Of a DNA stretch of 40,000 bases, positions 5,330 through 40,000 are shown in pieces (position 1 is the first letter of the stretch; every line of letters begins with the position of its first letter). The stretch is from an uncultured Solibacteraceae bacterium (GTDB lineage Bacteria > Acidobacteriota > Terriglobia > Bryobacterales > Bryobacteraceae). Position numbers and translations under genes: made by a program. Where the stretch lies: assembly GCA_963836405.1 (NCBI GenBank), contig CAWIJL010000019.1:121379-161378 (forward strand), given 5' to 3'. The notes under the pieces were generated by a model that did not search any database, was not told the origin of the DNA, and saw only the letters and a list, made by a program, of their open reading frames with translations.

Positions 5330-5624
5330 CCGCCAAGGTTATTGCTCGGCCCCGGGCCTTTGCACCTTATATCAGAAGCTACTGAAAGAAAAAGACATCG
5401 CCTGCGGCAAGCCGGCACTTCAAGATTGGCTGGTTTTCGTTCACAAATTTTCCAAAAATATTTTTCCCGTGTTTTCAGTGCTCTTCCCGCCCTACCCCAC
5501 TTCAGCCCTCCGAACCCCTGCTACCGTGTAGCTGAGATTTCGCGCCGCGCCTCACCAGCGCCGGCCGCAACACGTTTTTCTGCCGGGCCCGGTAGCGTTG
5601 CATCTTCGGTGAAACTGAACTTCC

Positions 5625-15125: not shown

Positions 15126-15127
15126 CC

Positions 15128-15823: not shown

Positions 15824-15869
15824 GACTCGGGTGTAGCCGGCAGCGCGCATTGTTTTATAATCGGGCCTA

Positions 15870-16619: not shown

Positions 16620-16671
16620 ATCGTCCCTCAGGGGCGGCCCGCCCGCCCCGCTATACTCGTAGCAGCACCCT

Positions 16672-18381: not shown

Positions 18382-18404
18382 GGCGGTCGCGGCTTCGAAT
18401 GGGG

Positions 18405-18740: not shown

Positions 18741-18742
18741 TG

Positions 18743-20968: not shown

Positions 20969-20996
20969 TCAATTGTAGCAGCGTGAGCTCGGGTGC

Positions 20997-21042
20997 AAAA
21001 GAAAACGCGGGGTAGGCCGGGCGGAAAGCCCGGTGCCCCGCG
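20997..21042 (-). terminator. Rho-independent terminator after the Ton/TPR operon
   Basis: On the minus strand: CGCGGGG...CCCCGCG stem (21036-21042/21006-21012) enclosing an inner CCGGGC/GCCCGG hairpin, followed directly by TTTTCTTTT. It lies 26 nt after the TPR gene stop. Confidence 0.55.
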
Positions 21043-21067
21043 TCCTGTTCCAAGCGAAAACCGTGGA

Positions 21068-21877
21068 CTACTTCTGATCCATGGTGATGCCGCCGCCGCT
21101 CGATGCTTTGCGTTCGGCCTTGATTTTCTTGGTGGCGAGCGCCTTGTCCACCCACTCGTCGGCCTTTTTGATCTCCGCTTCGTACTCGGCCTTGCTGTCC
21201 GCCAGGTCGGCACGTTCGCGGATGAGCAGGTTTTCGTAGGCCATGGCGTCGTCGTATTCCGGATCGATCTGCAGCGCCCTGTCGAGCGAGGCGAGACCGG
21301 AGTCGATGACGGGGCCGTACTGTGCCTTCAACTCTTCGCGTACCTTTTTGTCCTTGATGGGACCGGGATCTTCCTGCTTCATCCCGAGGTTGGCGCGCGC
21401 CGTACCATAGGCCGGATACCACTTCGACCAGGCGATAAATCCGAGGCTGTAGTGAGCTTCCTTGTTGCTCGGATCGACGGCGATCAGCTTTTCATACCAC
21501 TGCTGGGCTTCGTCCCACTTCTTCTGATTGAGGTAAAGGGACGCGATGGAGGCCATGGCGACCTTATCCTTGGGATCCTGATCCAGCACTTTCATGAACT
21601 GGTCGTGGGCCGCCTGCGCCATCTGGTTGTTTTCCGGGGACTCGGCGCCGGGGATGTACTGCTGCATGTAGGCCGTGGCGAGATACAGGCGCGCCGTGGG
21701 GAAATTCGGATCGAGTTCCACGGCTTTCTTGAAGCTCTCGACGGCCTCGGCGTACTGCGCGTTCTTGAACGCCTGCACGCCTTTGTTCAGGCGGTCGCGG
21801 GACTGCAATTTGCTGCAGCCGGTGCTCAACAGGGCCAGCGCCGCCAGACTGAGCACTACAATAAGTTTCCGCATCAC
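21068..21877 (-). CDS. Tetratricopeptide-repeat lipoprotein associated with the Ton system
   Basis: Lipobox MMRKLIVVLSLAALALLSTGC. Repeated TPR-like units (..AEAVESFKKAVELDPNF.., ..WDEAQQWYEKLIAVDPSNKEA..). The start overlaps the exbD stop (ATGA). Confidence 0.75.
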   Translation of the reverse strand: MMRKLIVVLSLAALALLSTGCSKLQSRDRLNKGVQAFKNAQYAEAVESFKKAVELDPNFPTARLYLATAYMQQYIPGAESPENNQMAQAAHDQFMKVLDQDPKDKVAMASIASLYLNQKKWDEAQQWYEKLIAVDPSNKEAHYSLGFIAWSKWYPAYGTARANLGMKQEDPGPIKDKKVREELKAQYGPVIDSGLASLDRALQIDPEYDDAMAYENLLIRERADLADSKAEYEAEIKKADEWVDKALATKKIKAERKASSGGGITMDQK

Positions 21878-22302
21878 TGTCCCGCCTCCACCGCTTTCGT
21901 CATCAGGCCCACCTTATCGATACCGGCCCCGTGGGCGATGTCGATGGCAGTGGCCACGGCCCGGAATTCCAGGTCGGGATCCCCTTTGACGAAGACCACG
22001 CGTTCGGCGCGGGTTTTGAAGATTTCCTGCAACCGGGCGCCCATCGAGGCCTCTTCGATCGGGTCCTGATTGATCGAGTATTTGGGACCTTTGTCCACGA
22101 CGATCACCACCGTTCGGAGGTCCGACTGGTTCGGCGGCTGGTTCGGCGGCGGAGGCTGCGGAACCAGTGCTTCAAGGCCCTTCGGCGTCAGGGGCGTGAT
22201 CACCATGAAAATGATAATCAGCACAAGCAGGACGTCGATCATCGGCGTCATGTTGATGTCGGCTTTCGGACCACTACCGGGCCCGCCTACGGACATTCCC
22301 AT
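21874..22302 (-). CDS. exbD: ExbD/TolR biopolymer transport protein (copy 2)
   Basis: ADINMTPMIDVLLVLIIIFMV TM motif. AAGGAG SD lies upstream. Confidence 0.85.
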   Translation of the reverse strand: MGMSVGGPGSGPKADINMTPMIDVLLVLIIIFMVITPLTPKGLEALVPQPPPPNQPPNQSDLRTVVIVVDKGPKYSINQDPIEEASMGARLQEIFKTRAERVVFVKGDPDLEFRAVATAIDIAHGAGIDKVGLMTKAVEAGQ

Positions 22303-22314
22303 AAAATTGCTCCT

Positions 22315-22776
22315 TTATAAATCCGGTCTACTGCCCCGCGGGCGGGGTCGCGGTTTCGGCCGTTTTTCCTGAGACTGTTCGGTCAGAAGACCGATGTTAT
22401 CCACGCCTGCCGCGCGCAGGTTATCTACCACGTCTACCACTCTTTCATACCTGGCACGGGAGTCCGACTTCACGAACACGGTTTTATCGATCCGGTTTGT
22501 GAGCAGGTCCTTCACCTTGGCGGGCATATCGGCGGGCGACAACTGCGTGGTATTCAAATACGTCTTGCCGTCCCGCGTCACGGCGCAGACAATTGCATCG
22601 CTTTTGTCGGCGGCGGCCATCGGGATCGGGTTCTTGGTCTTGGCAAGGTCCACGCTGACGCCTTTTGACAACATCGGCGTGATGACCATAAAGATGATCA
22701 ACATCACGAGCATCACGTCAACCATGGGGGTGACGTTAATGTCGGCCATCGGAGGCGGCGCCTTCATCAGTTTCAT
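22315..22776 (-). CDS. exbD: ExbD/TolR biopolymer transport protein (copy 1)
   Basis: ADINVTPMVDVMLVMLIIFMV. ATG 22776 is preceded by GGAGAAG. The 22809 start is unlikely. Confidence 0.85.
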   Translation of the reverse strand: MKLMKAPPPMADINVTPMVDVMLVMLIIFMVITPMLSKGVSVDLAKTKNPIPMAAADKSDAIVCAVTRDGKTYLNTTQLSPADMPAKVKDLLTNRIDKTVFVKSDSRARYERVVDVVDNLRAAGVDNIGLLTEQSQEKRPKPRPRPRGSRPDL

Positions 22777-22895
22777 GTTTGCTTCTCCTTCGCCACGTGA
22801 ATTTCGCAACCAGCTTCAGGTTTGGGGCCTTTCCTCGGGAAAGGCCCCGTTCAACTCGCCGGTTCCGACTATCCTTGAGGCGGCCTGGGCAGCCG

Positions 22896-23624
22896 CTACT
22901 TGCGTGCGCCGGCGCGCTGGGACCGCTTCAGGAAGTAGTCGATGAGCTCGGAGCTGGAGTTACCCATCTCCACGTCGAACGCTTCGATTTTGTTCGTGAA
23001 GAAGTTGAACATCCAGACCGCCGGGATGGCCACGAAAAGTCCGATAGCCGTGGCAACCAGAGCTTCCGAAATACCGCCCGCGACCGCGCCCAAGCCAGTC
23101 GACTTTTCGGTCGAAATGCCTTTGAACGCGTTGATGATGCCGACGACCGTTCCGAACAGTCCGACGAACGGAGCCGTGGAACCGATGGTCGCCAAGCCGC
23201 TGACGCCGCGCTTCAGTTCGGCGTGCACAATCGCCTCGGCGCGTTCGAGAGCGCGCTTGGAGGCTTCGATTTCTTCACCCGGGATTTCCGAGCTGATCTG
23301 GTGGGCCTGGAATTCCTGCAAACCAGCCACAACCACTTTCGCGAGATGGCTCTTCTTGTAACGGTCGGCGATCTTGACGGCTTCGTCGAGCTTGCCTTCA
23401 CGCAATGCGCCGGCGACCGCCGGAGCAAACGCGCGCGACTGCTTGCGGGCCGCGCTATAGGCCATCAGGCGATCGATCATGACGCCGATGGAGTATGCGG
23501 ACATGATGAACAGTCCGATAACAACCACCTTGGCGAGGAACCCCATCTGGTTCCACATAGTGATCGGATCCCAACCGACTTCCTGCAACATGTACAGGGA
23601 CCAAACGTGCATCTGCAAAAACAT
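22896..23624 (-). CDS. exbB: MotA/TolQ/ExbB proton-channel protein
   Basis: Three TM helices. Conserved C-terminal [25 protein letters not shown]...[27 protein letters not shown]. Confidence 0.9.
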
Positions 23625-23691
23625 TGTTCTTTTTCTCCTGCGAGTTGAATTTAAAACTTCTAAACTTCCGATGGCCGGCGAAGACCCTCGG

Positions 23692-24450
23692 TTACTGGCT
23701 CAACGTAAAGTTGACATCGATCTGGGTGGCCACCTCCACCGGTTCTCCGTTGAGGAGAGTCGGCTGGTAGACCCACTGTTTCACTGCATCAATGGCCGCC
23801 GGGACCAGCAGGGGGTGGCCGCTCAAGACATTGAGCTCCATGATGGTTCCGTCCTTGGAAATCACGGCGCTGAGCTTCACGACGCCCTGAATACGGGCCT
23901 GTTTAGCCAGCGGAGGATAAACCGGGCGGGGCTGGCGGACCAGTCTCGCCTGCTGGACGTTACCACCGACCCTGATGCGAGACGGCGGCGGCGGCGCTTT
24001 CTCCTTGGGAGGAGGCGGCGGCGGTGCTGCCGTGGGAACCGCACCCAGAATTCCACCGAGGACGCCGCCCGGAGTGCCGCCGGCAACGCCGCCCGGCACG
24101 CCACCGACAACTCCGGCAACGCCGGAAGTTACAGGCGGCAACTCTTCTTCTTTAATGGTTGCTACTTCTTTCGGAATCGCCTTGGGCGCCACCAGTTTTC
24201 CTGCATCGAACTGACGCGGAATCACCTTCACGACTTTAACGGGAGGCGCTGCCGCGGGCGGCGGGGGCGGGGGAGGCGGCGGCGGGGGGGCCACCAAGAA
24301 ACTGGTCAGCGTGGTTGACGGGAGCACGTCGAAGTAGACCATGGGGATGATGATCGCGATGCCAACCAAAAACATCTGGGCGACCATCGCGCCGACCATG
24401 GTCCAGGTTGTCTTCGTCTTCCCGCTGCCAACAAATGTTTGCTCAAACAT
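23692..24450 (-). CDS. tonB: TonB-family energy transducer with a Pro-rich linker
   Basis: TM anchor, P11 and P7 runs, and a C-terminal TonB domain (..[55 protein letters not shown]..). ATG 24450 is preceded by GGAAAGGA. Confidence 0.85.
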
Positions 24451-24511
24451 AGTTGCGTCCTTTCCAAACCCCGGGCTCGGCGGCAACTGGTTTCGCCGCC
24501 CGAGGACTGTC

Positions 24512-25744
24512 CTACTTGACCGCCTTAGTCGGGGCCTTTTTCATTGCTTCCGGCCGAACAGCCGTTGTTACGGCCGCCTGGCGCGGCTTTCGCTTATCCG
24601 CATAGTTGTGCCAGAACAGCACGATCGGACTTGCGACGAACACCGAAGAATACGTACCGACAAGAATGCCGCACACCAGGGCGAAAGCAAATCCGTGCAA
24701 TACCGGACCGCCCCAGATAAAGAGGGCCAACACGGTCAGGAACGTCAGCCCGGAAGTCATTACGGTCCGGCTCAGGGTCTGATTGATGGCCCGGTTCATT
24801 ACATTTTCGAGAGGCTCGCGGCGCGCCATGCGCAGGTTCTCGCGCACGCGATCGAAAATCACGATGGTATCGTTCATGGAGTAGCCGACCAGGGTCAGCA
24901 ACGCCGCGATGACGGTCATCGAAATTTCTTCATTGAATAAGGAGAAGAGGCCGATGGTGATCACGGTGTCGTGGAAGACCGCGATGACGGCGCCCAGACC
25001 GTAGATCCATTCAAAGCGGAATGCGATGTATACCAGCATCCCCGCGAGGGCATACAGTGTGGCCAACACTGCCTTGTTCCTCAGATCCTTACCGACCTTC
25101 GGACCAACCATTTGTACCTGCAACACGTGGAAGGGCGCCAGATACGTCTCCTGCCGAAGAGTGTTCATGATACCAGCATTCATGCCGGATACGGAGGAGA
25201 GTTGATTGAAATCCGTAACCAGCCCGGAGAGCTGGGTATCACGGTACTCGAGGATGTTTTTGGCCAGATCCTGGACCTGCTGTTCGCTCATGGCCACACC
25301 CGAACCTGCCAGGGGCCCGCGCAACCGCTCGACCAGCGCCGCCGTGCCCGTGTTATTCAGGTCGAGTTTACCGCTTCCGGGCTGCCCGAAGCTGGCGGTC
25401 AGAACATCCTGCATGGCCTGCCGGTTGACATTGAGCTGCTTTTCGTCCAGCAGCTCGGTCCCGATCTCAACCTCGTTTTCGGTTCCCGAGCCGGTGAAGT
25501 TTTGAACCGACACCTCGCCCTTGATCTTCGACGAGTCGCGCATGGCGGAGCGGATCTTTTCAACCGGCGGCTTGGACGCAAACTTGACCGTCATCAGGGC
25601 GCCACCCTTGAAATCGATGCCATATTTCACGCCGCCTTTGGCCGCGATGCTGGCCAACCCGGCGGTCACCAACACCAGCGAGGTAATGATGAACGGCCAC
25701 TTCTTGCCCAGAAAGTCGTAATTCGTGTTTTTGAAGATTTCCAT
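24512..25744 (-). CDS. secF: Protein translocase subunit SecF
   Basis: GIDFKGG motif followed by the C-terminal 6-TM SecD/F domain. Confidence 0.9.
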   Translation of the reverse strand: MEIFKNTNYDFLGKKWPFIITSLVLVTAGLASIAAKGGVKYGIDFKGGALMTVKFASKPPVEKIRSAMRDSSKIKGEVSVQNFTGSGTENEVEIGTELLDEKQLNVNRQAMQDVLTASFGQPGSGKLDLNNTGTAALVERLRGPLAGSGVAMSEQQVQDLAKNILEYRDTQLSGLVTDFNQLSSVSGMNAGIMNTLRQETYLAPFHVLQVQMVGPKVGKDLRNKAVLATLYALAGMLVYIAFRFEWIYGLGAVIAVFHDTVITIGLFSLFNEEISMTVIAALLTLVGYSMNDTIVIFDRVRENLRMARREPLENVMNRAINQTLSRTVMTSGLTFLTVLALFIWGGPVLHGFAFALVCGILVGTYSSVFVASPIVLFWHNYADKRKPRQAAVTTAVRPEAMKKAPTKAVK

Positions 25745-25839
25745 CGAAACGTGCCGTGCTGGTGTTCGTAACTTTGGACACCAGCCCTCCTCAAATTGTT
25801 CCCGCCTGTGCGGAAAGGTTTAACAGGCTTAACAGAAGC

Positions 25840-27459
25840 CTAGATGCTCAACGGTTCGGTCTGCCGGCGACCCGACAGCTCGAAGTCGAAAATCGTCCTG
25901 GAAACAAAAACCGCCGTGAAAATGTTGGCGATCAAGCCGATAACCAGCGTCACCGCGAACCCCTTCACCGGACCTTCGCCAAACAGGAACAGAAACGCGC
26001 AGGACACCACCGTGGTGACGTGGGTGTCGACAATCGTCCACCAGGCCTTGTTGAAACCGGTATCGACGGCGGTGATCACGCCTTTTCCGGTCTTCAACTC
26101 TTCGCGGATCCTCTCGAAAATCAGGACATTCGAGTCTACCGCCATACCGATGGTCAGGATTACCCCGGCAATTCCGGGCAGGGTGAGGACGGCGTGGAAG
26201 TAGGAGATGGCGGCCAGCAGGATGACGGTATTGAGGAACAGGGCCAGAACGGCGTTCACGCCGGCCCGCTTATAGTAGAGCAGCATGACGACGACTACGG
26301 CCAAAAGTCCGGCGAGTCCGGCGATGAAGCCCTGCCGGATCGAGTCCGCGCCGAGCGAGGGACCGATGGTCCGCTCCTCGCCGTACTGGACGGAGGCAGG
26401 CAGGGAACCCGAGCGGAGGAAGCGCGCCAGGTCGACGGCCTCCTGCTCGCTGCCGAGATTGGTGATGCGGCCGGAATCTTCGATGCGGCTCTGGATGGTG
26501 GCCACGCTGACGAGGCGGTTATCGAGCGAAACCGCCAGGCGGTTACCGATATTAGCTTCGGTGAAGCGGCCGAAACGCTTGCCGGCGTCCGGGGACAGGG
26601 TGAAATTCGTCTCCCATTTGCGGAACTCGTCCTGGGAGGCGCGGGCATTGCGCATCTCCTGGCCGGAAACCACGGGGACCTTGCTGACCAGGTACCACTC
26701 TTCGCCTTCCGAACCGCCGCGGGGAACGGCGCGCACTTCCTTGGTACCGAGCGGACGCACGCCGCCGTGCTGCGCGAGGAGGGCATCCCGGCTGGGGTAA
26801 GGACCATCCTTGACGTCGGTCAGTTCCAGCACCGCCGCGGTACCGATCAGTTCTTTGACGCGGGCCGGATCGTCCACGCCCGGGAGCTGCACCAGAATCT
26901 GGTAATCGGACCCGGAACCGCCGTACTGCTGGACGGACTTCTCGGCGAGGCCGAGCTGGTCGATGCGGTTGCCGATGGTGTCGATGGTGCGCTGCACCGT
27001 GTCGCGCTTGACGGCGATCAGGTCGGTGGGCTTCAGGCGCATGGTGTAGTCGGTGGAGTTGACGGCGGTCAGCACATAGGTGGGGAAGCGCTCGTTCACG
27101 AGGCTGCGGAAGGCGCTGGACTGGGTGGCGGGAACCCCTTTCACGGTGATTTCCACCTTGTCGGCGTCCTCGACGGTCTCGGGCTCGTTCCGGTCCATGC
27201 TGGTCCAGGTGATGTTCTGCTTCTTCAGGTCTTCCTTCATGCGGTCCATGGTCTGGTCCGCATCCGCCTTGACGGCGTCCTGCACCTGAACGGTCATCAC
27301 CAGATGGCTGCCGCCCTTCAGGTCGAGACCCAGGCGGATGTTGTTCGAGAAGTTCTTCGCGAGATCCGCCTTCGACTTGGGGAACCCGATAATGCCAAAA
27401 ACGCAAAGCAGTATCGTGACAATGATGACCGCGCTTCGGGCCTTGATATTCGTCTTCAT
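25840..27459 (-). CDS. secD: Protein translocase subunit SecD
   Basis: GLDLKGG motif, a large periplasmic P1 domain and the SecD/F TM bundle. Confidence 0.9.
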   Translation of the reverse strand: MKTNIKARSAVIIVTILLCVFGIIGFPKSKADLAKNFSNNIRLGLDLKGGSHLVMTVQVQDAVKADADQTMDRMKEDLKKQNITWTSMDRNEPETVEDADKVEITVKGVPATQSSAFRSLVNERFPTYVLTAVNSTDYTMRLKPTDLIAVKRDTVQRTIDTIGNRIDQLGLAEKSVQQYGGSGSDYQILVQLPGVDDPARVKELIGTAAVLELTDVKDGPYPSRDALLAQHGGVRPLGTKEVRAVPRGGSEGEEWYLVSKVPVVSGQEMRNARASQDEFRKWETNFTLSPDAGKRFGRFTEANIGNRLAVSLDNRLVSVATIQSRIEDSGRITNLGSEQEAVDLARFLRSGSLPASVQYGEERTIGPSLGADSIRQGFIAGLAGLLAVVVVMLLYYKRAGVNAVLALFLNTVILLAAISYFHAVLTLPGIAGVILTIGMAVDSNVLIFERIREELKTGKGVITAVDTGFNKAWWTIVDTHVTTVVSCAFLFLFGEGPVKGFAVTLVIGLIANIFTAVFVSRTIFDFELSGRRQTEPLSI

Positions 27460-27487
27460 GGGAGTTTAAGAGCTACTTCTGTTCAAA

Positions 27488-27820
27488 TTACTTCTTTACT
27501 TCGGTCGAGGCCAGGCTGGACACGGCGCTACGCGCCACCTGCATCTTTATATTGTCCGGTTTCACGCGCAAGACCAGGGTGTCGTCGGCCTCGATGGCCA
27601 CGATGGTCCCGATAATTCCTCCGCTGGTCACCACCACATTGCCGTTCTGCAAGCCGGCCAGCATCTTCTGCTGCTGCTTGCGCTGGCGCTGCATGGGCAT
27701 GAAAAGCAGGAAATAGAAGATCCCAAAGATGAGCACGATGGGAAGGAATCCCAGCCAGGAACTGGACGGCGATTGCAGCAAGTACAGGTTGAGAATCACG
27801 TTTTGGCCAATGGGGGTCAC
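27488..27820 (-). CDS. yajC: Preprotein translocase subunit YajC
   Basis: Single TM helix followed by [14 protein letters not shown] and [19 protein letters not shown] motifs. GTG 27820 is preceded by GGAGG and overlaps the tgt stop (GTGA). Confidence 0.8.
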
Positions 27821-28957
27821 TCGGCCTCCAACGGGGCAGAGCGCACACACTTCAAGTATTCCGGGAATGAATCCGATATTATAGCGTGCCTAATCTCACG
27901 CATGATGTCAAGGTACCGCCGGATGTTGTGTCGTGTCGCCAGCACCGCGTACAAAATCTCCCCGGACTGGAACAGGTGACGAAGGTATGCTCGGGAGTAC
28001 TTGCTGCAGGTATAACACTGGCAGGCCGGGTCGACGGGGCGGGGGTCGTCGCGGTAGCGGGCGTGCTTGATGATGAGGCGGCCCTGGGAGGTGAACAGGT
28101 AGCCGTTGCGGGCGTTGCGGGTGGGCAGGACGCAATCCATCATGTCGATGCCGCGCGCCACGTACTCGGGGAGTTCGTGGGGCATTCCGACTCCCATGGC
28201 GTAGCGGGGCCGGTCAGCGCGGCAGCAGATCGGCGGAAACTTCGGCCATTTCGAGGCTCAAAGGGCGCGGTTCGCCGACCGAGAGGCCGCCGATCGGCAT
28301 AGCCGTCGGCATCGAGATCGACCAGGGCCGGGCGCATTCGCGGCGCAGGTCGGCGAACATGGAGCCCTGCACGATGGGGAACAGCGCGTGCCGGGTTTCC
28401 ATGGCGGCCAGCCGTTGGCGGTGGTGGGCGGCCGCCTGGCGAGCCCAGCGGACGGTCCGCTGCATGCTGGCGCGGGCGTACTCATGGCTCACCGGGTACT
28501 CGGGGCACTCGTCGAGCGCCATCAGGATGTCGCTGCCGTAGGCAAGCTGGGCGTCCACGGTGGATTCGGGGGTAAAGGTGTGGAGGTCGCCATCGAGGTG
28601 GGAGTGAAAGACCACGCCCTGGTCGGTGATTTTGCGCAGGCCGCTGAGGCTGAACACCTGGAAGCCGCCCGAATCGGTGAGGATGGCGTTCGGCCAGGAC
28701 ATGAAGCGGTGGAGGCCGCCCAGTTTGCGAATCAGCTCGTGGCCGGGGCGCAGGAAGAGGTGGTAGGTGTTGGCCAGGAGAATGCGGACGCCGAGCTCCT
28801 CGTCGAGGTCGCGCTGGGTGAGGCCCTTGACGGTGGCCTGGGTGCCGACGGGCATGAAGACGGGCGTTTCGATGGTTCCGTGGGGGGTGTGCAGCAGTCC
28901 GGCACGGGCGCGGGTCTGGCGGCACTCGGCCACCACTTCGAAAGAGATCTGCGGCAA
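27817..28957 (-). pseudogene. tgt: tRNA-guanine transglycosylase (queuine tRNA-ribosyltransferase), interrupted by three frameshifts as sequenced
   Basis: ORF 28214..29095 carries ..TPVFMPVGTQATVKG..TDSGGFQVFS..LFPIVQGSMFADLRRECA. ORF 28140..28337, in a second frame, carries the expected ALVDLDADGYA. The first frame resumes with IGGLSVGEP and hits TGA after SADLLPR. ORF 27817..28197, in the third frame, carries (RY)[33 protein letters not shown]. Total length 1141 nt is not a multiple of 3. The likely start is TTG 28957 (MPQISFEVV..). Confidence 0.85.
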
Positions 28958-29079
28958 GCTTCGATTGTAATGACATTTCAGCGGGACGCGGCGGCGGGCG
29001 GGGCAAACGTCGGCGGGCGGGATGCGTCCAATCCTCATCGCGCGCGCGGGGCTTCCGGCGCGGGGCGGTAGACTGGACG

Positions 29080-30156
29080 ATGATGGAAAGCACACGACGG
29101 ACGTTCGTAACCTCCCTGGCGGGGGCTGGAGTGCTGGCGGCCGCGCCGCAGGCGAAGAAAAAGATCCTGATTCTGGGCGGCACCGGCTACCTGGGACCGG
29201 CCACCGTGGAAGCGGCCCGGGCGCGGGGCCACGAGATCACCCTTTTCAATCGCGGCAAGACACGGCCGGACCTTTTCAAGGACCTGGAGATCCTGCACGG
29301 CGACCGCGACCCGCTTAAGGACGAGGGCCTGAAGGCGCTCGAAGGCCGCAAGTGGGACACGGCGATCGACAACTCGGGCTACTTCCCGCGCCTGGTGAAC
29401 GCGTCCGCCCGGCTGCTTGCTCCCAATGTCCGGCAGTACATCTTCATTTCCTCGATTTCGGCTTACGCGGACAACGTCACCGAGAACCAGGACGAGACCG
29501 GGCGGCTGGCGACGACGAAAGAGCCGGAGGTGGAGAAGATCACCGATGGGAGTTACGGTCCGTTGAAGGCGCTTTGCGAGAAGGCGTCGCAGGAAGCGTT
29601 CCCGGAACGGGCGGCGGTGGTGCGGCCGGGGTACATTGTGGGGCCGGACGATCCCAGCGGGCGGTTCACGTACTGGCCGGTGCGGGTGGACCGGGGTGGG
29701 GAGGTGCTGGCGCCGGGCGCGCCTGCCGACCCGCTTCAGATCATCGACGTGCGCGACCTGGGCGCCTGGCTGATAACGCTGGCGGAGCAGCAGACCAGCG
29801 GGGTATTCAATGCCTGCGGCCCGAAGGACCGGCTGGCGTGGGGCGATGTGCTGCAAGCCTGCCGCAAGGCCACCAAGACGGAAAGCAAGCTGACCTGGGT
29901 GCCCGCCGAATGGTTGGCGAAACACGACGGAGAAGTATTCCCCATTTGGGCGCCGTACCGCACGGAAACGCGGGGATTCCATACCTGGAAGAACGACCGG
30001 GCGGTCAAGGCGGGACTCAAGTTCCGTCCGGTGCAGCAGACCGTTTCCGACACCCTGGCGTGGTACAAATCGCAGAGCGAGCGCACGAAGCTGGCGGGTC
30101 CGGCGGCGGAAAAAGAGGCGGAACTGCTGGCGCAGTGGAAGAACGGCACGAAATAA
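29080..30156 (+). CDS. NAD(P)-dependent epimerase/dehydratase-family (SDR) oxidoreductase with a Tat-type signal
   Basis: MMESTRRTFVTSLAGAGVLAAAPQA (twin-Arg motif) followed by the Rossmann motif ILILGGTGYLG. Confidence 0.8.
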   Translation: MMESTRRTFVTSLAGAGVLAAAPQAKKKILILGGTGYLGPATVEAARARGHEITLFNRGKTRPDLFKDLEILHGDRDPLKDEGLKALEGRKWDTAIDNSGYFPRLVNASARLLAPNVRQYIFISSISAYADNVTENQDETGRLATTKEPEVEKITDGSYGPLKALCEKASQEAFPERAAVVRPGYIVGPDDPSGRFTYWPVRVDRGGEVLAPGAPADPLQIIDVRDLGAWLITLAEQQTSGVFNACGPKDRLAWGDVLQACRKATKTESKLTWVPAEWLAKHDGEVFPIWAPYRTETRGFHTWKNDRAVKAGLKFRPVQQTVSDTLAWYKSQSERTKLAGPAAEKEAELLAQWKNGTK

Positions 30157-30167
30157 GCGTCTAAAGT

Positions 30168-32696
30168 TTACTGCAGGATCTCGACATAACCGGCGGTTCC
30201 GTGCACGCGGATGCGCTGTCCGTCGCGGATCAGGCGGGTGGCATGCTCCACGCCGACAACGGCCGGCAAGCCGTACTCCCGGGCGATCACGGCACCATGG
30301 GTCATCAGGCCGCCCACCTCCGTCACCAGGCCTTCGATCGCGACAAACAGGGGCGTCCAACTGGGATCGGTGTAGGCGGTGACCAGGATGTCGCCGGGTT
30401 CGAGATCGGCCTCGGTCATGTCCGCGATGACGCGGGCGCGCCCCTCGACGGTGCCGGCGGAGACGGGTAGACCGATCAAAGCGCCGGGAGGCAAACCGTC
30501 GCGCCGGTACGTCCCGGCGACGACCTCACCTTCGGAGGTGAGCACGCGCGGCGTCGTGAGCGCTTGGTGCGACCGGAACGCGTCCTTGCGGCGGCGGAGG
30601 AGCTGCTCGTCGACCCGGTTGGTGCGCACCACCTCCTGAAACTCCTGGAACGTGAGATAGAAGATGTCTTCCCGGTCGCGAAGCACGCGGGCTCGCACGA
30701 GGCGGCAGGCTTCTGCGAGGAAGGCCCGCTTATAGACGAAGTAGCGGCTGACCATGCCGTACTTCGGATACTCCCGGTAGCCGATGAAGGTCCGGACGAG
30801 GTCGATCATGCGCTTGACCTCTTCGGCCTTGCGCTCCCCGTCCGGCAAGGACCGCAGGCGCTGGAGCAGGTCCCGTTCTTTGTTCGAGGCCTCGAGCCGT
30901 CCTTGCTCGAAGCGCCGCTTGCCCGCGCCCGGCTCGAAGTTCGCGACGTTGCCCAGGATGAGCGGCAAAAGCGTGGCGGGGCGTTCGCTCCAACGCGGCC
31001 GGGTGATATCGATCTCGCCGGCGCAGCGCATGCCGTACTTGTCGAGCCAGGCCAGGATGGCATCTCGCGTTTCGCGCCCGCCGGCAAGCTTGGGCAGATG
31101 GTCGAGGAAGCCCTCGTCCTGGACGTGCCGCAGAAAAGCGACCACTTCGGGATGGGGGCGGATGGCGTCGGCGACATCCAGGAGTGCCAGCCCCATTTCC
31201 GAGGTGACGTTATGGGGGACGGACTGCGTGAGGGTGTCGGCCGCGTTCTTCTCGCCCAGCCACGACTCTAAGCGCTCGTTGAGCCACCAGGTGGCCTCGA
31301 TGGCGGCCATGAATACGCGATGGCTTTGCGGGTCGAACAGGATGCGCCTCAGTTCCTGGATATCGGCCAGGATGAAATCGAGCAGCGCCGATCCGGATTT
31401 GGTACGGATTTCGCGCTCCGCAGCGGCGATGGAGGCCTGGCAGCGGCCGATCAAATCGGTGACGATAGCCGGATCGGGCTTGATCGGGGCAGGCGCGGCG
31501 GCCGCCGGACGTCCGCCGGGCGCATCGCCGGCAAGCGGCCGGATGAAGTCGCCGCGTTCGAGGATGTTCTGCAGGGCGTCACGGATCAGGGGATCGTGTT
31601 TCCCCATCATCTCCAGGAGTCCGGCGCGGCTGGCGGGGGACGACAGCGCCCGGGTCAAGTCGACGAACAGCCTCCCGCCGGCGTCGTACATTGGCCCACT
31701 CGCCGTCAGTTGCCAAAGGGAAATCCCCAGGGGCTTGATGGCGTCGGTCATCATCTGCTGATGGCCGACGGAGATGTAGACGTGGTTCTCGTGGTCCGCG
31801 GCCGCGGGGATGGGGAACAGCGTCGTGACCGGCCGGCTCTGCACGAATTCAAAGCCATCGTCGAGGAGGCACCATTCGATGTCCTGGGGACAGCCGAAGT
31901 GCGCTTCGATCCGCCGGCCCAGGTGGACGAGCCGCACGACCTGCGCATCGGTCAGCGCCGGCTCGATTGCCGCGGCGACCTTGCTGGCGAGGATCCGGCC
32001 GTCCCGCACCTTGTAGACGTCCCCGTTGACCAAGCCGGAGACGAGGGCTTCGCCGAGGCCGAAGCCGGCTTCGACGGAGGCGATTTTGCGGTTGCCGGTG
32101 ACGGGGTCGGCTGTGAAAAGAATGCCGGCGGCGTGGGGGAAGACCATCCGCTGCACGACCACCGCCATCCGGACCTTGCGGTGATCGAAGCCGTTCCGCA
32201 GGCGGTAGGTCACGGCCCGCGCGGTGAAGAGCGAAGCCCAGCAGCGGCTGACGTGCCGGAGGATCGCGGCCGGCCCAACGACGTTCAGGTAGGTGTCGTG
32301 CTGGCCGGCGAAGGAGGTCGAGGGCGAGTCCTCCGCGGTGGCACTGGATCGGACGGCGTAGGCGGCTTGGGGGCCGAGCCGGGCGAGCGGGCGGGCGATT
32401 GCGGCGGCCAGGTCGCCGGGGATGGCGACGGCTTCGAGGGTCTGGCGGATCTCCGCGGTGAGCGCGCCGATCGCCTCGCGGTCTTCCGGCTGGAGACGCG
32501 ACAGCTCATGGAGGCGGTCGTCAAGCGACGGCGCTTCCGACAGGATCCGCTGGAAGGCGTCGGTCGTCACGCAGAAGCCGGCCGGCACGCGGAGGCCTTC
32601 GATGCGCGAAAGCTCCCCCAGGTTCGCGCCCTTGCCGCCGGCCACGGCGACCTGCGTCCGGTCGATCTCGTGGAAATCCAACACGTAGCTGCCCAT
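30168..32696 (-). CDS. PEP-utilising enzyme of the rifampicin-phosphotransferase-like architecture (often annotated as phosphoenolpyruvate synthase)
   Basis: 842 aa. N-terminal PPDK_N/ATP-grasp (VAVAGGKGANLGELSRIEGLRVPAGFCVTT), a long central domain, and a swivel phosphohistidine domain at the extreme C-terminus (GGLMTHGAVIAREYGLPAVVGV). Confidence 0.8.
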   Translation of the reverse strand: MGSYVLDFHEIDRTQVAVAGGKGANLGELSRIEGLRVPAGFCVTTDAFQRILSEAPSLDDRLHELSRLQPEDREAIGALTAEIRQTLEAVAIPGDLAAAIARPLARLGPQAAYAVRSSATAEDSPSTSFAGQHDTYLNVVGPAAILRHVSRCWASLFTARAVTYRLRNGFDHRKVRMAVVVQRMVFPHAAGILFTADPVTGNRKIASVEAGFGLGEALVSGLVNGDVYKVRDGRILASKVAAAIEPALTDAQVVRLVHLGRRIEAHFGCPQDIEWCLLDDGFEFVQSRPVTTLFPIPAAADHENHVYISVGHQQMMTDAIKPLGISLWQLTASGPMYDAGGRLFVDLTRALSSPASRAGLLEMMGKHDPLIRDALQNILERGDFIRPLAGDAPGGRPAAAAPAPIKPDPAIVTDLIGRCQASIAAAEREIRTKSGSALLDFILADIQELRRILFDPQSHRVFMAAIEATWWLNERLESWLGEKNAADTLTQSVPHNVTSEMGLALLDVADAIRPHPEVVAFLRHVQDEGFLDHLPKLAGGRETRDAILAWLDKYGMRCAGEIDITRPRWSERPATLLPLILGNVANFEPGAGKRRFEQGRLEASNKERDLLQRLRSLPDGERKAEEVKRMIDLVRTFIGYREYPKYGMVSRYFVYKRAFLAEACRLVRARVLRDREDIFYLTFQEFQEVVRTNRVDEQLLRRRKDAFRSHQALTTPRVLTSEGEVVAGTYRRDGLPPGALIGLPVSAGTVEGRARVIADMTEADLEPGDILVTAYTDPSWTPLFVAIEGLVTEVGGLMTHGAVIAREYGLPAVVGVEHATRLIRDGQRIRVHGTAGYVEILQ

Positions 32697-32827
32697 CGCT
32701 CCCTCCCTGGTGCGGACGACAACCGCAGGTTTTGGCTATAGGCTGACGATTATGCGGCACGGCCCGGGTATTGCCGCAAGCCCGGGGGCGCACGATAAAA
32801 TGGAAGCAGGCGGGTGGAAGGCGAGCT

Positions 32828-34087
32828 TTAGGTCTCAGGCAGCGGCGGGGCGGCCTTCGGGAGAATGCCCAGCTCGCGGTAGATGGGCCGGATTTCGCGG
32901 CGGATCCCCGGCAATCTCATCGAGAACCAGAGGGCGCCTGCGAGGCACAGGATGCCGCCGCAGACGATCGTGGCGGGCGCGCCGATTCTGCCCGCGACGA
33001 AGCCGGCGGCGAGGCTGCCGAAGGGCGCCAGTCCTTGAAAGGCCATCAAGTAATAGGCCATCACCCGTCCGCGCTTGTCCTCGTCAACGATGGTTTGGAC
33101 GATGGTGTTGCTGGATGCCATGTGGCGCATCATGCCGAAACCGGCGGCGGCGACGGCGGCGAGCGAAAGCGGGAGCAGCCGCGAGAACCCGAGCCCGATC
33201 AGCCCCACGCCGAAGAGGCCGGCCGACCAGACGATGACTCTGCCCAGACCCAGAACGCTCCTGCGCATGGCCAGCGCGACGGCTCCGGCGAGCGCACCGA
33301 GACCCGCCGCCGCCATCAGAAACCCTAGCGTGTGCGGGCCTCCGCCCAGCACCGAAGTGGCGAAGATCGGCATGAGAACCGTGTAGGGCATGCCGACGAC
33401 GCTCACCAGCGTGAGGAACAGGAGGACCGAGCGAATGGCGCGCGATTCGGTGACATATCGCCAGCCTTCCTGCATCTCTTGGACGAGGTTGCGCGAGGCC
33501 GGACGGGGCTTGGCCGGAGGACGGCGCATGGCCAGCAGCGACGCGATCACGGCCACGTAACTGATACCGTCGATGAGGAAGCAGTAGCCCTCGCCCACGG
33601 CGGCGATGAGCATTCCCGCCACGGCCGGCCCCACCAGCCGCGCCGCGTTGACCATGGAGGAATTCAGCGCGATGGCATTACCAAGGTCCTCGCGCTGCTC
33701 GATCATCTCGACCACGAACGACTGGCGGGCCGGCATGTCGAAGGCATTGATCGCGCCCTGGGCCAGCGCCAGCAGCAGGACCTCCGCGATGGTAATCACA
33801 TGGGCGAGCGCCAGGGCCGCCAGCGCGAGCGACTGCAGCATGGACAGAATCTGCGTGATCACGAGCGTGCGATGGCGGTCCCAGCGGTCCACCCAAACGC
33901 CGGCGATGGGGGTCAGGAACAGAATCGGGATCTGGCTGGCGAAGCTGGTCAACCCGAGCAGAAACGGAGAATCGGTCAGGCGGTAAACCAGCCAGCTCAT
34001 CGCGACGCGCGTCATCCAGGTGCCGATGAGGGAGACGATCTGGCCTTCGAAGAAGAGGCGGTAATTGCGCGAGTGGAGCGCCCGCAA
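32828..34087 (-). CDS. MFS transporter (efflux-type, 12 TM)
   Basis: RNYRLFFEGQIVSLIGTWM.., GVWVDRWDRHR loop motif, hydrophobic throughout. TTG start. Confidence 0.85.
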   Translation of the reverse strand: MRALHSRNYRLFFEGQIVSLIGTWMTRVAMSWLVYRLTDSPFLLGLTSFASQIPILFLTPIAGVWVDRWDRHRTLVITQILSMLQSLALAALALAHVITIAEVLLLALAQGAINAFDMPARQSFVVEMIEQREDLGNAIALNSSMVNAARLVGPAVAGMLIAAVGEGYCFLIDGISYVAVIASLLAMRRPPAKPRPASRNLVQEMQEGWRYVTESRAIRSVLLFLTLVSVVGMPYTVLMPIFATSVLGGGPHTLGFLMAAAGLGALAGAVALAMRRSVLGLGRVIVWSAGLFGVGLIGLGFSRLLPLSLAAVAAAGFGMMRHMASSNTIVQTIVDEDKRGRVMAYYLMAFQGLAPFGSLAAGFVAGRIGAPATIVCGGILCLAGALWFSMRLPGIRREIRPIYRELGILPKAAPPLPET

Positions 34088-34172
34088 CAGCAGGCGCCCG
34101 GATGCCAGGATGGAGCGTTCTTTCGGCAGTTAAGGGTCCGGTGCAATCGGAGTGCCGCGGTGGCGTGGCGTA

Positions 34173-34625
34173 CTATGTACCGACGCTGAGCACCAGGATT
34201 GCGAACGCCGCGATCAGGGCACAGGTGCGCAACCAGTGGTAGAGATCCCACCGATGCTGCTGCGCCGCCCAGTTCCCGGGGAGCGATTGCGGGGTCCACG
34301 TTTTGATTCTGTTATTGATTGGAACCAGACCGGCGATGGAAAAGAGGATGGCGCCGACCTGGATGACGAACGCAATCAGGGCCAGCCGCCATGCGGGCTC
34401 GTTCAGATGAGCGAACGGCAGCAACAGGAGCAAATTGAGCAAAGTGGACGCCGCCATCCAGAACGGCATTACACGGCCAAGTAACGCCGCAAGGGACGAT
34501 CGAAGGGGTATGCGCACGGCCAGGGACTGCCGGTTCAGCATGGGATGGGCGAAAGCCGCCACGTTTAATTCGCTTCCGCACATGGCGCCGAGGACAACCA
34601 CGGCCAATATCTGGAGCTCTGTCAC
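34173..34625 (-). CDS. DUF1772 (anthrone-oxygenase-like) membrane protein
   Basis: 150 aa with four TM helices. ..GSELNVAAFAHPML.. and ..WDLYHWLRT.. are typical of DUF1772. Family assignment is from memory. Confidence 0.65.
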   Translation of the reverse strand: MTELQILAVVVLGAMCGSELNVAAFAHPMLNRQSLAVRIPLRSSLAALLGRVMPFWMAASTLLNLLLLLPFAHLNEPAWRLALIAFVIQVGAILFSIAGLVPINNRIKTWTPQSLPGNWAAQQHRWDLYHWLRTCALIAAFAILVLSVGT

Positions 34626-34693
34626 GGGAACCTCCCTCAGCTATGGATGCCGTTCACCTGCCGATCGGATCAGGCTTGGTAGTACCAGTTCTT

Positions 34694-34723
34694 TTGTTGG
34701 TTTGTCTCAAAATCTGACATACT
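34694..34723 (+). promoter_or_regulatory. Putative promoter of the cNMP/Fe-S/FHA/cytochrome cluster
   Basis: TTGTTG (34694-34699), 18 nt, then CATACT (34718-34723), in the AT-richer divergent intergenic region. ATG 34748 is preceded by GGACTGGGG. Confidence 0.3.
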
Positions 34724-34747
34724 GAACCAAATCGCACAGGACTGGGG

Positions 34748-36728
34748 ATGGCAAAAGACGTAATCCTCGCGGCGGACCTGGGGGGGAGCCTGCTTTCTGC
34801 CGAGGAGCTGGCGGCGATTCCGGACTTTGCCGGGATCCGGAAGGAGATCTGGGACAAGTTCCCCGGCGCGATCGCCCGGAAGGAGTATCGCGCGGGCGAA
34901 ATGCTGATGCGGGAGGGCGAGAACGGTACCACGGCCTTCTACATCCTTTCTGGGACGATCGAATCTACTCATTCAGAACCCGGTATCGCGGGCGGAGAGC
35001 CGGCGCTCGAGCGGAGGCGGGTGGCTGTTCGGCAGCCTCTCCAAGATCACCAACTACATGAAAGGCGTTCCGGCAGCGGCCGAGGCGGCGAGCGGGGGCG
35101 CGCACGCACATCCCCATCGACGCGCCGGTGGACCTGCCGATGGACGATCCGATCGCCGAGGTATACGCGGGCGACCTGATCGGCGAACTGGCGGCGCTGG
35201 CGGCGACTCAAGCAGGAGCGGCTCAAGCGGCCCAAGTTCTATCCGCGCTCGGCGACGGCGCGGGCGAAGACGGACGTGGTGGTGCTTGGAGATGCTGCCG
35301 AACATCCTGAACAACGTCCTTTACAATGCGCCGGCCTTCAAGGAGAAGCTGAACCGGAACTACCGGACGCCGCGCGCTCGACAGCCACCTGCGCTCGGTT
35401 CCCGACGTTTCGCAACCTGAGCCCGGAGTTTCTGAACGCGCTGCGGGAACGGGTGGAACTGGTGGACGTGGCGCCGGGGCAGGTGATCTGCCGGCAGGGC
35501 GAGATCGCCGATTCGTTCTACCTGATCCGCATGGGATTCGTGAAGGTCTCGCAGATTTTCCCGGGCGGCGAACTGGTGCTGACTTATCTTTCGCGCGGCT
35601 CGTATTTCGGGGAGATGGGCCTGCTGCCGCCGGTATTTCCGCGTGCGCGCGCGGGGACGGCAAGGCGGGACAGATGGCGGAGGCGGCGGTTTCGAGCGAA
35701 GATCTGCCGGTGGGCCGCGCTCCGGACAGCGGCGGCTGGCGGTGCCGTGGGACGAGTACATTTCGCGCGAGCATGCCGCGCTGCGGGTGGAGGGCAAGCA
35801 GCTTCGCGTGTTACCGCTGCCTACGGGCAAGAATCCGATCACGTTCCGGATGCAAGCCGGTGGAGAGCGCGCTGGTCTCGCCCGGGCGAAAGCTTTCGTC
35901 ATCGGCGAAACGACCTTCGAAGTGATGGAGGATCCGCTGCAGGCCGGCCGGCGCACCGCCACCTGCACGGCGGTGGATTTCGTGCAATTGGTGCGCATCA
36001 AGGCCGACGATTTCGCCGCGATGCTGGGCGGAGTTTCCGGAGGTGGCGGCCGGCATCACGGAGGTCGGCGCGGGCGCGGCGGCAGATGGATCTGCGAACT
36101 GCTCGGGCGCGTGCAGCAGGCCTCGCTTTCGAGCTTTCTCGAACAGGAGCTGATGCAGGGGCAGAACCTGCTGCTGCTCGACCTGGACAAGTGCACGCGC
36201 TGCGACGAGTGCGTGAAGGCGTGCGTCGCCACGCACGACGACGGCGTCACGCGGCTGGTGCGCGACGGTCTGCGCTTCGAGAACTACCTGGTGGCGACCA
36301 GTTGCCGCGCCTGCATGGATCCGCTGTGCATGACGCGCTGTCCGGTGGGTTCGATCCGGCGCAAGGCCACGCTGGACATCGTGATCGAGGACTGGTGCAT
36401 CGGCTGCGGCAACTGCGCGACCGATTGCCCGTACGGCAACATCAACGTGGTGCAGGTACAGGATCCGCGGCCGCAAGCAGAAGGCCGAGCCGCGGCCGAA
36501 AGCGGTGGTGTGCGATCTGTGCGCCGAATTTCCCGGAGCCCAACTGCGTGCGCGCCTGCCCGCACGACGCCGCCATCCGGGTGGAGCCGAAGACGTTCTT
36601 CGCGCGCGACCTGGCGGGCATGCAACTGCCGTGCCCGTACCGGCGGCCGCGCCGTCTGCCCCGGCCGGACGCGTCGGCGGAAGCGGTCGAGACGCGGATT
36701 TACTCCAATGTGGACGAAGTGCTCGAAC
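34748..36728 (+). pseudogene. Protein with two cyclic-nucleotide-binding domains and a 4x[4Fe-4S] ferredoxin domain; reading frame broken about 10 or more times as sequenced
   Basis: CNB1 is pieced from three frames: YRAGEMLMREGENGTTAFYILSGTI / WLFGSLSKITNYMKG / IPIDAPVDLPMDDPIAEVYAGDLIGELAAL / KFYPRSATARAKTDVVVL / EMLPNILNNVLYNAPAFKEKLNRNYR. CNB2: FRNLSPEFLNALRERVELVDVAPGQVICRQGEIADSFYLIRMGFVKVS..SRGSYFGEMGLL ... RTATCTAVDFVQLVRIKADDF. Fe-S motifs: CTRCDECVKAC, CRACMDPLCMTRCP, CIGCGNCATDCP, CDLCAEFPEPNCVRACP. The 3' boundary is uncertain, and this gene may be fused to the next one. Confidence 0.7.
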
Positions 36729-38013
36729 ATGCTGCCGCGGCTGAAGATCGATCTCCGGCCCGCGCGCCGGCGCCTTCCTCCAGTTGCGGTACCCTTCGAC
36801 GACATTCGGACGCGGGCGCGGGCAACGACTACCGCTTTGCCGACGACACGCTGATGTCGCGCGCCCAGGCGGCGATCGTGTGCGAGGGCGGCCGCTTCAT
36901 GCTGCGGGACCTCAACTCCACCAACGGCACGCTGGTCAACGGCAATCCGGTGACGGAGATGGAACTGCGGCCGGGCGACGTGATGGAGATGGGCGAGATG
37001 CAGCTCGAATTCTATCGGGGGCCAGGTGCAATGATCCTGGACCGGCGGACAATCGCGGGCGGCGGCGCTCTCGGCAACTGCGGCGCTGGTGCCTGTCACG
37101 CTCGGCCTACGCCGCGTATGCGGCGGCATCGCCGCAACGGGCGCGCGGGGCGGCTCGTTCATGGGCCTGTTTTTCGCGGCCGCTGGGGACCGGCATCGAT
37201 CGTGTTCGAGTGCCTGCTGGGACTCCGCAAGCGGTATCCGGCCTCGCCGCTGGGCCGGGTGAGGACCTGGCTGCGGGCGCACACTGTGGCTGGGGCTGCT
37301 GGCGTTCCTGCTGATCCTGATGCACTCCGGTTTCCGCTGGGGCGCGGGCCTGGCCGGGCTGCTGATGTGGCTGTTCGCCGCGATCGTCGGGAGCGGAATT
37401 TTCGGGGTGGCGCTGCAGAACTACATTCCGAGGCGAATGACGGAACTGGTGGCGCGCGAAACGATGTTCGAGCAGATCCCGGCCGTGATCCGCGGGCTGC
37501 GCGCGGAAGCCGGCGGAGCGGGTGGAATTCGTCACGGCGGACCTGGGGCTGGAGGAAGAAGAGGCGGAGGAATTCGTCCGCGCCGGCGGGGTGAAGCAGT
37601 ACTTCGATCCGGCGCAGAAGAAGAGCGCCGCGGAAAAGGTGCAGGCGGCAGTCGAGAAGCGCAAGAGTGCGCCGCAGATGGAGGTGGAGGAGAATGCGCG
37701 GCGGGCGCTGCGGGCTCACTTTGTGGAGGAGATCCGGCCGTTTCTGGCGGACCGTCCGGGCGCGTATTGCCGGCAACTGTTTGCTTCGCGGGCGCGGGTG
37801 GCGGCCTATTTCTCGCATCTCCGCACGATCATGCCGGTGGCTGCGCACAACGTGCTGCACGATCTCGAAGAGATCTGCGAAGAACGGCGGCAACTGCTGG
37901 TGCAGCGTCGCCTGCACCTGTGGCTGCACGGGTGGCTGCTGGTGCACGTGCCGGTTTCGTTCGCCTTCCTGGTGCTGATTGCGGCGCACGCGGTGCTGGC
38001 GTTGAGGTACTGA
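36729..38013 (+). pseudogene. FHA domain plus polytopic membrane domain with histidines in its helices; frame-broken, and possibly the C-terminal part of the preceding gene
   Basis: FHA pieces: MLPRLKID / LSGPRAGAFLQLRYPSTTFGRGRG / NDYRFADDTLMSRAQAAIVCEGGRFMLRDLNSTNGTLVNGNPVTEMELRPGDVMEMGEMQLEF. Then TM segments: ..RTWLRAH/LWLGLLAFLLILMHSGFRWGAGLAGLLMWLFAAIVGSGIFGVALQNY.. and ..RRLHLWLHGWLLVHVPVSFAFLVLIAAHAVLALRY*. Stop at 38011-38013. Confidence 0.6.
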
Positions 38014-38014
38014 T

Positions 38015-39295
38015 ATGGCGAAAGAGGAAAAACCTTTCGAATATCAGCGCCGCATTCGCGACACCAAAGGCCTGGCGCAGCGGCTGGACCTGAACTACCT
38101 GCGGCGTGCAGGGGCGATGGCTGTTCTGCGCAGCCGGCTCACGTGGGGAGTAACGGCGCTGGCGGTGCTCGCCTGCGTGCCGCTGGTGCTTGGGCGTAGG
38201 TGGGCGGAAGGCGCTGACGAGCGGGCCGGTTTCGCGGGCGCACGCGTTGCTGGCCGACCGCTGCGAAGCGTGCCATGCGCAGGCGTTTGCGGGAGTAGCG
38301 CGACGCGAGCTGCCGCAAATGCCACGATTCCGGCGCGCACACGATGCATGCCCGCTCGACGCCGCGGTGCGCGCAATGCCATGCGGAGCACCGGGGCGAG
38401 ACCCTGCTGGTGCGGGTGGCGGACGGCAACTGCACGGCGTGCCATGCCAACCTGACGGCGCACGCGAACGGCGTCGACCATCAAAGGGCGGGAGATCACG
38501 GCATTCCGCGCGGGCCGGCATTCCGAATTTGCGGCGGTTTCGGCGCGGGACACGCGGCCCTTGAAGCTGAACCACGCGATACACATGCCTTCGCAGCCGA
38601 AGACGCTCCGCGGGATGAAGCTGCCGATGCAGTGCACGGACTGCCATGCGACGGACCGCGGGTCGCGGGAAGGCGCGCTGCTGCCGGTCACCTTCGAGAG
38701 GAACTGCAAGTCGTGCCACGCGCGGGAACTGGAGTTCGATGTGGATCGCGTGCTGGGGGCGGGGGCCGCTCCGGCGCCTCACGCGAAGGATGCCAACGCG
38801 ATCCGGGAGTACGTGGCGAAGGCGTACCGCGATGCGCTGGCGGCGGATCCGGGAATGGCGCGGCGGCCGGTGGGCAACGACTTGGCGGCGCAGCCCGGCG
38901 CGTCGGCGTGGCTGGCGCGCGTGACGAACGATGCGGAGCGGTACCTGTTCGATCGGAAATGCGGTTACTGCCACGAGGGCGATCCGGCGGCGGCGAAAGC
39001 GGGGCGGATCGCCGGACGATATCCGGAGGGCGTCCGGTGGCTGCCGCACACGGAGTTCGAGCACCGCACCCACCGCCCGGTAGCCTGCGAATCGTGCCAC
39101 ACCGCGGCGCGCGCGAGCGTGAAGACGGCGGACGTTCTGGTTCCTGGCATGAAGACATGTCTTCCGTGTCACGGCCGGTCCGACGCCGGTATGGACCGCT
39201 GTTCCGAGTGCCACCTCTATCACGACCGGAAGCTCGAAAAAGAGCCCGTGCGACAACCCACGGAGAGGCTGATTGCGGTGGGGGTGGCGCGTTGA
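38015..39295 (+). pseudogene. Membrane-anchored multihaem c-type cytochrome (10 CxxCH motifs); three frameshifts in the first 480 nt as sequenced
   Basis: N-terminal anchor LTWGVTALAVLACVPLVLG. Haem motifs: CEACH (38262, frame 0); CRKCH, CAQCH and CTACH (frame 1); CTDCH, CKSCH, CGYCH, CESCH, CLPCH and CSECH (frame 2, ORF 38561..39295). The ATG lies 1 nt after the upstream stop. Confidence 0.75.
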
Positions 39296-40000
39296 TCTAC
39301 GCCGGAATGACCGATCCGGGCCGCAGGCGGGCGAACAACGAGGACGCGTTTGCGATCGAGGCGTCGCTGCACGCGGCGGTCCTGGCGGATGGGATGGGGG
39401 GCGCGAACTGCGGGGAGGTGGCCTCCGCCCTGACGGTGGAGGAGGCCCTGAAATATCTGCGATGTCCGGAGCCGGGGCTGACGCTGGAGGAGATTTGCAA
39501 AGAGGCGGTGCGCGCGGCCAACCTGCGGGTGTTCGCGGAATCGGCCGGGCAGCGGGACTGCCGGGGAATGGGATCGACGGTGGTGCTGGCGCTGTGGCGG
39601 GGCGCGGAACTGGTGATCGGGAATGCGGGAGACAGCCGCGCGTACCTGCTGCGGGGGGGCGTGCTGCGGCAGCTTTCCTACGACCAGAACTTCGCCAACG
39701 AATTGCGGACCAAGCTGGGCTTCACGCGAAGAACGGCTGCGCCACATGCCGAACCGCAACGTGCTCACGATGGCGGTGGGAATTTACGAACAGGTGCTGG
39801 TGCGCACGCAGGTGGAAAGGCTGGCGTGCGGCGACCGGATCCTTTTGTGCTCGGACGGGTTGCACGGGCCGGTATCCGAGGACACGATCTGGCAGATTCT
39901 GATGGGCGGGACGACGGCACGGGAGAAGGTGGAAATGCTGGTGCGGTGCGCCAACGAACGCGGCGGGCCGGACAACATTACGGCGGTCCTGCTGGAGTAT
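39292..40000 (+). pseudogene. PP2C-family Ser/Thr phosphatase; one frameshift near 39727; 3' end outside the window
   Basis: TTG 39292 overlaps the cytochrome stop (GTTGA). (M)IYAGMTDPGRRRANNEDAF..LADGMGG..MGSTVVLAL..IGNAGDSRAYLL. After an extra base near 39727 the frame shifts to ..EERLRHMPNRNVLTMAVG..LLCSDGLHGPV..ANERGGPDNITAVLLEY. Confidence 0.75.

Follow-up and report, generated by a model that had tools for sequence, protein, structure and literature searches.

We analyzed a 40,000-nt stretch of the genome G000 (hereafter, the window), located in the middle part of a 265-kb contig (G000:C19:121379–161378), in which four consecutive genes of the forward strand are broken by about 30 single-base frame shifts between positions 34964 and 39727. 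These shifts are very probably spurious bases in the assembly consensus and not mutations of the organism. The observation holds at the sequence level but is ordinary, and the feature is most likely not a biological one.

Frame shifts in the window and across the genome

The G000 genome comprised 6.7 Mb in 21 contigs with a G+C content of about 63%. Its completeness, calculated from marker genes, was 84%, and the estimated contamination was 2.8%. Protein matches placed it in the Acidobacteriota, among Bryobacterales/Solibacter-like organisms. Because all frames are open at this G+C content, lists of open reading frames (ORFs) were uninformative, and frame hopping was judged by a frame plot of the G+C content at third codon positions (GC3), Pfam matches to gene fragments, tblastn with intact orthologues, and a protein-to-DNA alignment allowing frameshifts, with orthologues from G020, G026, G022, and G008 as references. 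For the genome-wide scan, a codon-usage hidden Markov model (HMM) was trained on the long ORFs of G000, and all contigs were divided by seven-state Viterbi segmentation; a junction was counted where the frame changed on the same strand while the old frame remained open.

The GC3 plot, tblastn, and the frameshift-aware alignment concurred that the coding frame hops repeatedly on the forward strand at 34.9–39.8 kb, and Pfam matches to gene fragments fell in differing frames across this interval. Gene A (34748..37024), encoding a cNMP-binding/FHA/4Fe-4S dicluster/FHA protein of about 750 aa in orthologues, carried about 21 of the shifts (34964, 35073, 35206, 35285, 35367, 35401, 35636, 35658, 35728, 35856, 35887, 36030, 36067, 36092, 36462, 36529, 36629, 36670, 36728, 36753, and 36814). 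Its orthologues in G020, G022, G026, and G008 were single open frames of 743–802 aa; after correction, gene A was 74% identical to that of G020 (555/747), with all cysteine motifs of the Fe-S part kept. About five shifts (37067, 37185, 37198, 37283, and 37515) were placed in gene B (37031..38010), which encodes a membrane protein (about 323 aa); its orthologue gave weak DUF4405/ferric-reductase-like matches. Three shifts (38189, 38301, and 38476) were found in gene C (38015..39286), whose product is a c7/c3-like multihaem cytochrome c of about 435 aa with the 270 C-terminal aa intact. Finally, one +1 shift (39727) was present in gene D (39283..40000), a PP2C phosphatase gene that continues past the window end. 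All four genes are located on the forward strand. In this patch, the indel positions are accurate only to about one codon, and the base-level signature described below comes from other patches.

The events were strongly one-sided: 27 of the 30 were +1, and three were ‘+2’ (binomial p = 8e-6 vs a 1:1 split). Close pairs of +1 events were counted as separate because the short stretches between them align well to the orthologues. The density of shifts was 10.2 per kb in 34964–37515 and 1.6 per kb downstream of 37515. No in-frame stops were found among the 1744 codons of the corrected frames of the four genes. The shifts showed no link to homopolymers, as judged from the maximum run length within 9 nt, which was the same at the 30 sites as at random positions. 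Neither tandem repeats nor simple-sequence repeat tracts were found at the sites, and a phase-variable contingency locus was rejected on the absence of such tracts. A motif or slippery sequence common to the 30 sites was not found either, and the structured-RNA search gave no Rfam match in the patch region.

The first-pass annotation had described clearly coding peptides hopping between frames, free of in-frame nonsense codons and with undegraded motifs, and this description is borne out by the GC3 plot, tblastn, the alignment to the four orthologues, and the stop count given above. All but two of its switch points were within 6 nt of the aligned events; the remaining two, 35110 (aligned at 35073–35102) and 36830 (aligned at 36814), were within about 40 nt. 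The rest of the window reads through except for tgt, encoding tRNA-guanine transglycosylase, which was the only other broken gene inside the window and is the second place to which the annotation had drawn attention. A mini-patch in this reverse-strand gene (28214..28331) contained three single-base indels within 120 nt compared with the same-genus genome G001: one base is added at each of 28214 and 28294, and one is lacking at 28331. The gene is split into two ORFs, of 293 aa and 126 aa. At both tgt insertions, G000 reads TC where G001 has the C alone.

The clustering of shifts had also been taken as a lone local feature, and this view did not hold. The window patch runs on to about C19:168.5 kb, about 8.5 kb past the window end, so that the full noisy stretch occupies C19:156.3–168.5 kb (about 12 kb), and the HMM showed about 35 such patches across the genome, this one included. 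In total, 35 shift clusters of 0.5–6.5 kb each, together about 90 kb, were detected in G000. Shift-like junctions numbered 2–8 per kb within the clusters vs 0.09 per kb elsewhere, and most 5-kb bins of the genome contained 0 or 1 junction. Net +1 changes within the clusters exceeded net −1 changes (224 vs 77). The patches also broke gltB, gltD, recG, a GlnD-like gene, and genes encoding sulfite/nitrite reductase, an amino-acid permease, a biotin-carboxylase/carboxyltransferase, an M16 peptidase, and a transketolase-like protein; fragments of the broken genes retained very high domain scores. The same type of error therefore recurred across the patches regardless of gene function, housekeeping genes included. 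The flanks on both sides of the patches belong to long clean contigs. Poor short-read polishing at high G+C content was mostly rejected as the cause, as 96–97% of the 2.5-kb windows with 66–70% G+C were clean.

Isolated junctions outside the 35 patches also leaned to +1 (384 vs 215), and ordinary gene boundaries leaned in the opposite direction (816 vs 1279). This suggests that the same insertion error is thinly scattered over the whole G000 genome; such scatter may account for the completeness estimate of 84% in a bin of only 21 contigs.

Base-level signature and genomic setting

The character of the extra bases was resolved in patches that could be aligned to a clean copy. An 8.2-kb block of contig C5 with gltB, gltD, and two further genes (C5:419471–427694) is 88% identical to a clean block of contig C9 (C9:60891–69042). 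The frameshift patch coincided with this duplicated block, and only the C5 copy was riddled with single-base indels: 41 insertions and 12 deletions. Read in the frames of C9, the four genes of the C5 patch had dN/dS values of 0.15–0.18, their differences were concentrated at third codon positions, and no stops were found in about 2400 codons; therefore, the C5 sequence beneath the indels evolved as that of working genes.

The inserted base was identical to its neighbor in 10 of the 41 C5 insertions. In two other patches aligned to G001, this was the case in 9 of 64, compared with 48% by chance (p = 2e-8). Most of the coding insertions in C5 (28/34) adjoined a third codon position, and none of these 28 repeated the adjacent third-position base, although about one third would be expected to do so by chance. 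C/G pairs made up 17 of the 28, and they also accounted for 48% of the natural differences at third positions between the two copies. Thus, the indel spectrum was one-sided and independent of slippage-prone contexts.

The surroundings of the window patch are variable. The same-genus genome G001 was about 90% identical to the window over 15000–30156, where synteny stops; it had no match to C19:155552–170674, including window 34600–40000 and C19:163–170 kb. This segment of about 15 kb encloses the noisy stretch and begins at about 34174 in the window, and synteny resumes at C19:170675. In window 30157–34173, the gene for an 842-aa PEP-utilising enzyme matches G001 elsewhere at only 66%, and an MFS gene has an 86% match on another G001 contig; therefore, the patch sits in a wider rearranged, variable region. 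The data did not support a simple insertion beside the MFS gene relative to G001, since the surroundings of this gene in G001 were unrelated. The C5 patch was likewise absent from G001, and a patch on contig C7 was only partly present there.

The noisy start of contig C12 (C12:17–2524) and the clean end of C19 (C19:262450–264957) differed by 184 mismatches and 16 gaps (92% identity). It follows from this overlap that the assembly holds two versions of some loci, which points to two related populations in the sample. A second copy of the window patch was not found within the bin. For this reason, a collapsed paralogue was rejected as the source of the window patch, while it applies to the C5 and C12 patches.

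Origin of the extra bases

The pattern could have arisen as follows. G000 appears to be a long-read metagenome bin whose consensus would carry about 0.5–1% single-base errors, mostly insertions, in about 35 short stretches, the window holding the beginning of the 12-kb stretch at C19:156.3–168.5 kb. The accessory segment of about 15 kb is likely carried by part of the population, or exists in more than one version, and presumably has few or mixed reads. The likeliest route would be that two alternative bases occurred in the reads and both were kept consecutively by the consensus step; plain low depth is an alternative route, and a stitched-in rarer relative is a possible sub-case. Retention of both alleles would explain why the extra base almost never equals its neighbor, why it mostly falls at or beside third codon positions, and why its commonest pair is C/G, which is also the most frequent natural third-position difference here. 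The true locus would then be an intact conserved operon for the cNMP/FHA/Fe-S protein, the membrane protein, the multihaem cytochrome, the PP2C phosphatase, a Ser/Thr kinase, and further cytochromes.

Both components of this scheme have precedents. Frame-breaking indels in long-read consensus sequences and poor quality at low depth are documented (PMC9262707), and so are polishing failure and loss of frame when a consensus spans two haplotypes (PMC8092372). As in G000, single-base indels in long-read assemblies split genes without nonsense codons (Sereika et al. 2022, PMC9262707; proovframe preprint 10.1101/2021.08.23.457338), marker completeness is lowered, and the problem is worse at low depth (PMC9262707). 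Unlike such errors, those described here were gathered in about 35 patches and not evenly spread, were mostly insertions, and avoided homopolymers. The work on Hapo-G (PMC8092372) is similar to our case in that a consensus of two versions can lose its frame, with errors local to variable regions; however, it dealt with diploid eukaryotes and short-read polishers, whereas for this bacterial bin the two versions are deduced.

Several points weigh against spurious consensus bases. Their presence, the read depth, and the allele mix at the sites were deduced from the assembled sequence. The patch genes had no near-identical copy elsewhere (the best protein match was 66% among 5.8 billion proteins), so the signature comes from other patches. 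The typical nanopore consensus error is a deletion in a homopolymer, unlike the pattern observed here. The HMM gives approximate junction counts, with false positives in the background. Finally, the absence of the segment from G001 concerns one genome, 92% complete and of uncertain consensus quality.

Among the explanations offered in the first-pass annotation, a mis-polished or low-coverage patch or a collapsed strain-variable region remains the favored one, in agreement with the 27:3 excess of +1 events, the lack of a homopolymer link, the 35 patches, and the segment missing from G001. A related but unlikely alternative is that the contig incorporates DNA from a less abundant relative in the same sample, which, being covered by few reads, acquired plain low-depth noise and not a mixture of alleles. 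Two patches have a clean homologue in the bin at 88–92% identity, similar to the divergence from G001; the bin contamination of 2.8% and the patch sizes of 0.5–12 kb, which are on the scale of long reads, would also fit such a chimeric join. However, the bin lacks a second copy of the window patch, random noise should neither avoid copying the neighboring base nor favor third codon positions, and the sequence on either side of the patches is part of long clean contigs.

It is rather improbable that the indels are real and that the locus is a horizontally acquired accessory island very recently inactivated by single-base insertions, that is, a cluster of early-stage pseudogenes. The absence of the segment from G001 and the affiliation of its closest orthologues with another family fit a dispensable transferred island, and the C5 gltBD patch is a second, possibly redundant copy. 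As in bacterial pseudogene decay, e.g., in reductive genomes, neighboring genes lost their frames together. Substitutions usually outnumber indels 5–10 fold in bacterial pseudogenes; on this basis, 4–9 new stops would be expected in the window patch, while none was found in 1744 codons (P(0) = 0.013 to 0.0002). True decay is characterized by nonsense codons, relaxed dN/dS, a predominance of deletions over insertions, and indels linked to homopolymers; each of these four hallmarks was tested, dN/dS in the C5 patch, and none was found. The 27:3 excess of +1 is opposite to the known deletional bias of bacteria, and natural single-base indels occur mostly in homopolymers, which the indels here avoid. 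Moreover, the same signature in 35 patches breaks gltB, recG, and tgt, and the dN/dS of 0.15–0.18 in C5 indicates selected substitutions. Natural decay thus does not fit the one-sided +1 excess, the avoidance of slippage contexts, the lack of nonsense codons, the substitutions under selection, and the recurrence in 35 patches with core genes among those hit. This evidence also weighs against the earlier proposal of a very recent inactivation by indels only; the first-pass annotation had itself reasoned that true decay should bring substitutions as well.

If the extra bases were truly in the DNA, they could also result from a novel process that inserts single bases not copied from the neighbor into accessory segments, maybe combined with read-through; we consider this highly improbable. 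Such a process would mean indel-only gene silencing in about 35 patches. Least credible of all is a biological read-through, in which programmed ribosomal frameshifting, transcriptional slippage, or RNA editing keeps the genes expressed: its sole support is the well-conserved peptide segments between the shifts, and it is excluded because the 30 sites have no motif in common and are all absent from the orthologues, each of which is in a single uninterrupted frame; besides, the sites have no slippery sequence or repeat, the region has no RNA family match, and four genes requiring thirty recoding events in succession would yield essentially no full-length product. Programmed +1 frameshifting of the prfB type resembles our case in the +1 change inside a conserved gene, but it occurs at one conserved site with a defined motif common to the orthologues.

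With spurious consensus bases as the preferred explanation, the genes at 34.9–40 kb and those in the approximately 35 other patches (about 90 kb) should carry a quality flag and should not be annotated as pseudogenes. They are unsuited to analyses of gene content or selection before re-polishing and should be treated as intact until reads show otherwise. The insertion signature—an extra base that never copies its neighbor and usually adjoins a third codon position, in patches coinciding with accessory or two-version segments—may help to recognize this artefact in further long-read bins when only the assembly is available.

Underlying operon and neighboring features

The operon beneath the shifts is conserved in Bryobacterales and uncharacterised, and it is not novel in kind. 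The order of gene A, gene B, the multihaem cytochrome gene, and the PP2C gene was conserved in Bryobacterales/Solibacter relatives, and the closest orthologues of the operon were found in another family of the same order, with 72–75% nucleotide identity. Downstream of the window, a Ser/Thr kinase gene directly follows gene D and is succeeded by several cytochrome-like genes; the kinase gene is also followed by genes for additional CXXCH proteins, one LVIVD-repeat protein, and two HbpS-like proteins. The locus looks like a redox-linked phospho-signalling operon. Between the last clean gene of the window and the patch, an intact ORF of 150 aa belonging to an anthrone-oxygenase-like family was found on the reverse strand (34173..34625).

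A non-coding repeat of about 350–420 nt was present in at least 8 copies in G000, at 87–96% identity, and in at least 7 copies in G001; the Rfam search gave no match for it. It may be a small mobile element marking variable regions. Four frameshift patches, of which C5 contains two and C3 and C2 one each, have a copy no more than about 3 kb away. One copy is at C5:427.2–427.7 kb, and a diverged copy was identified in the window at 5578–5880.

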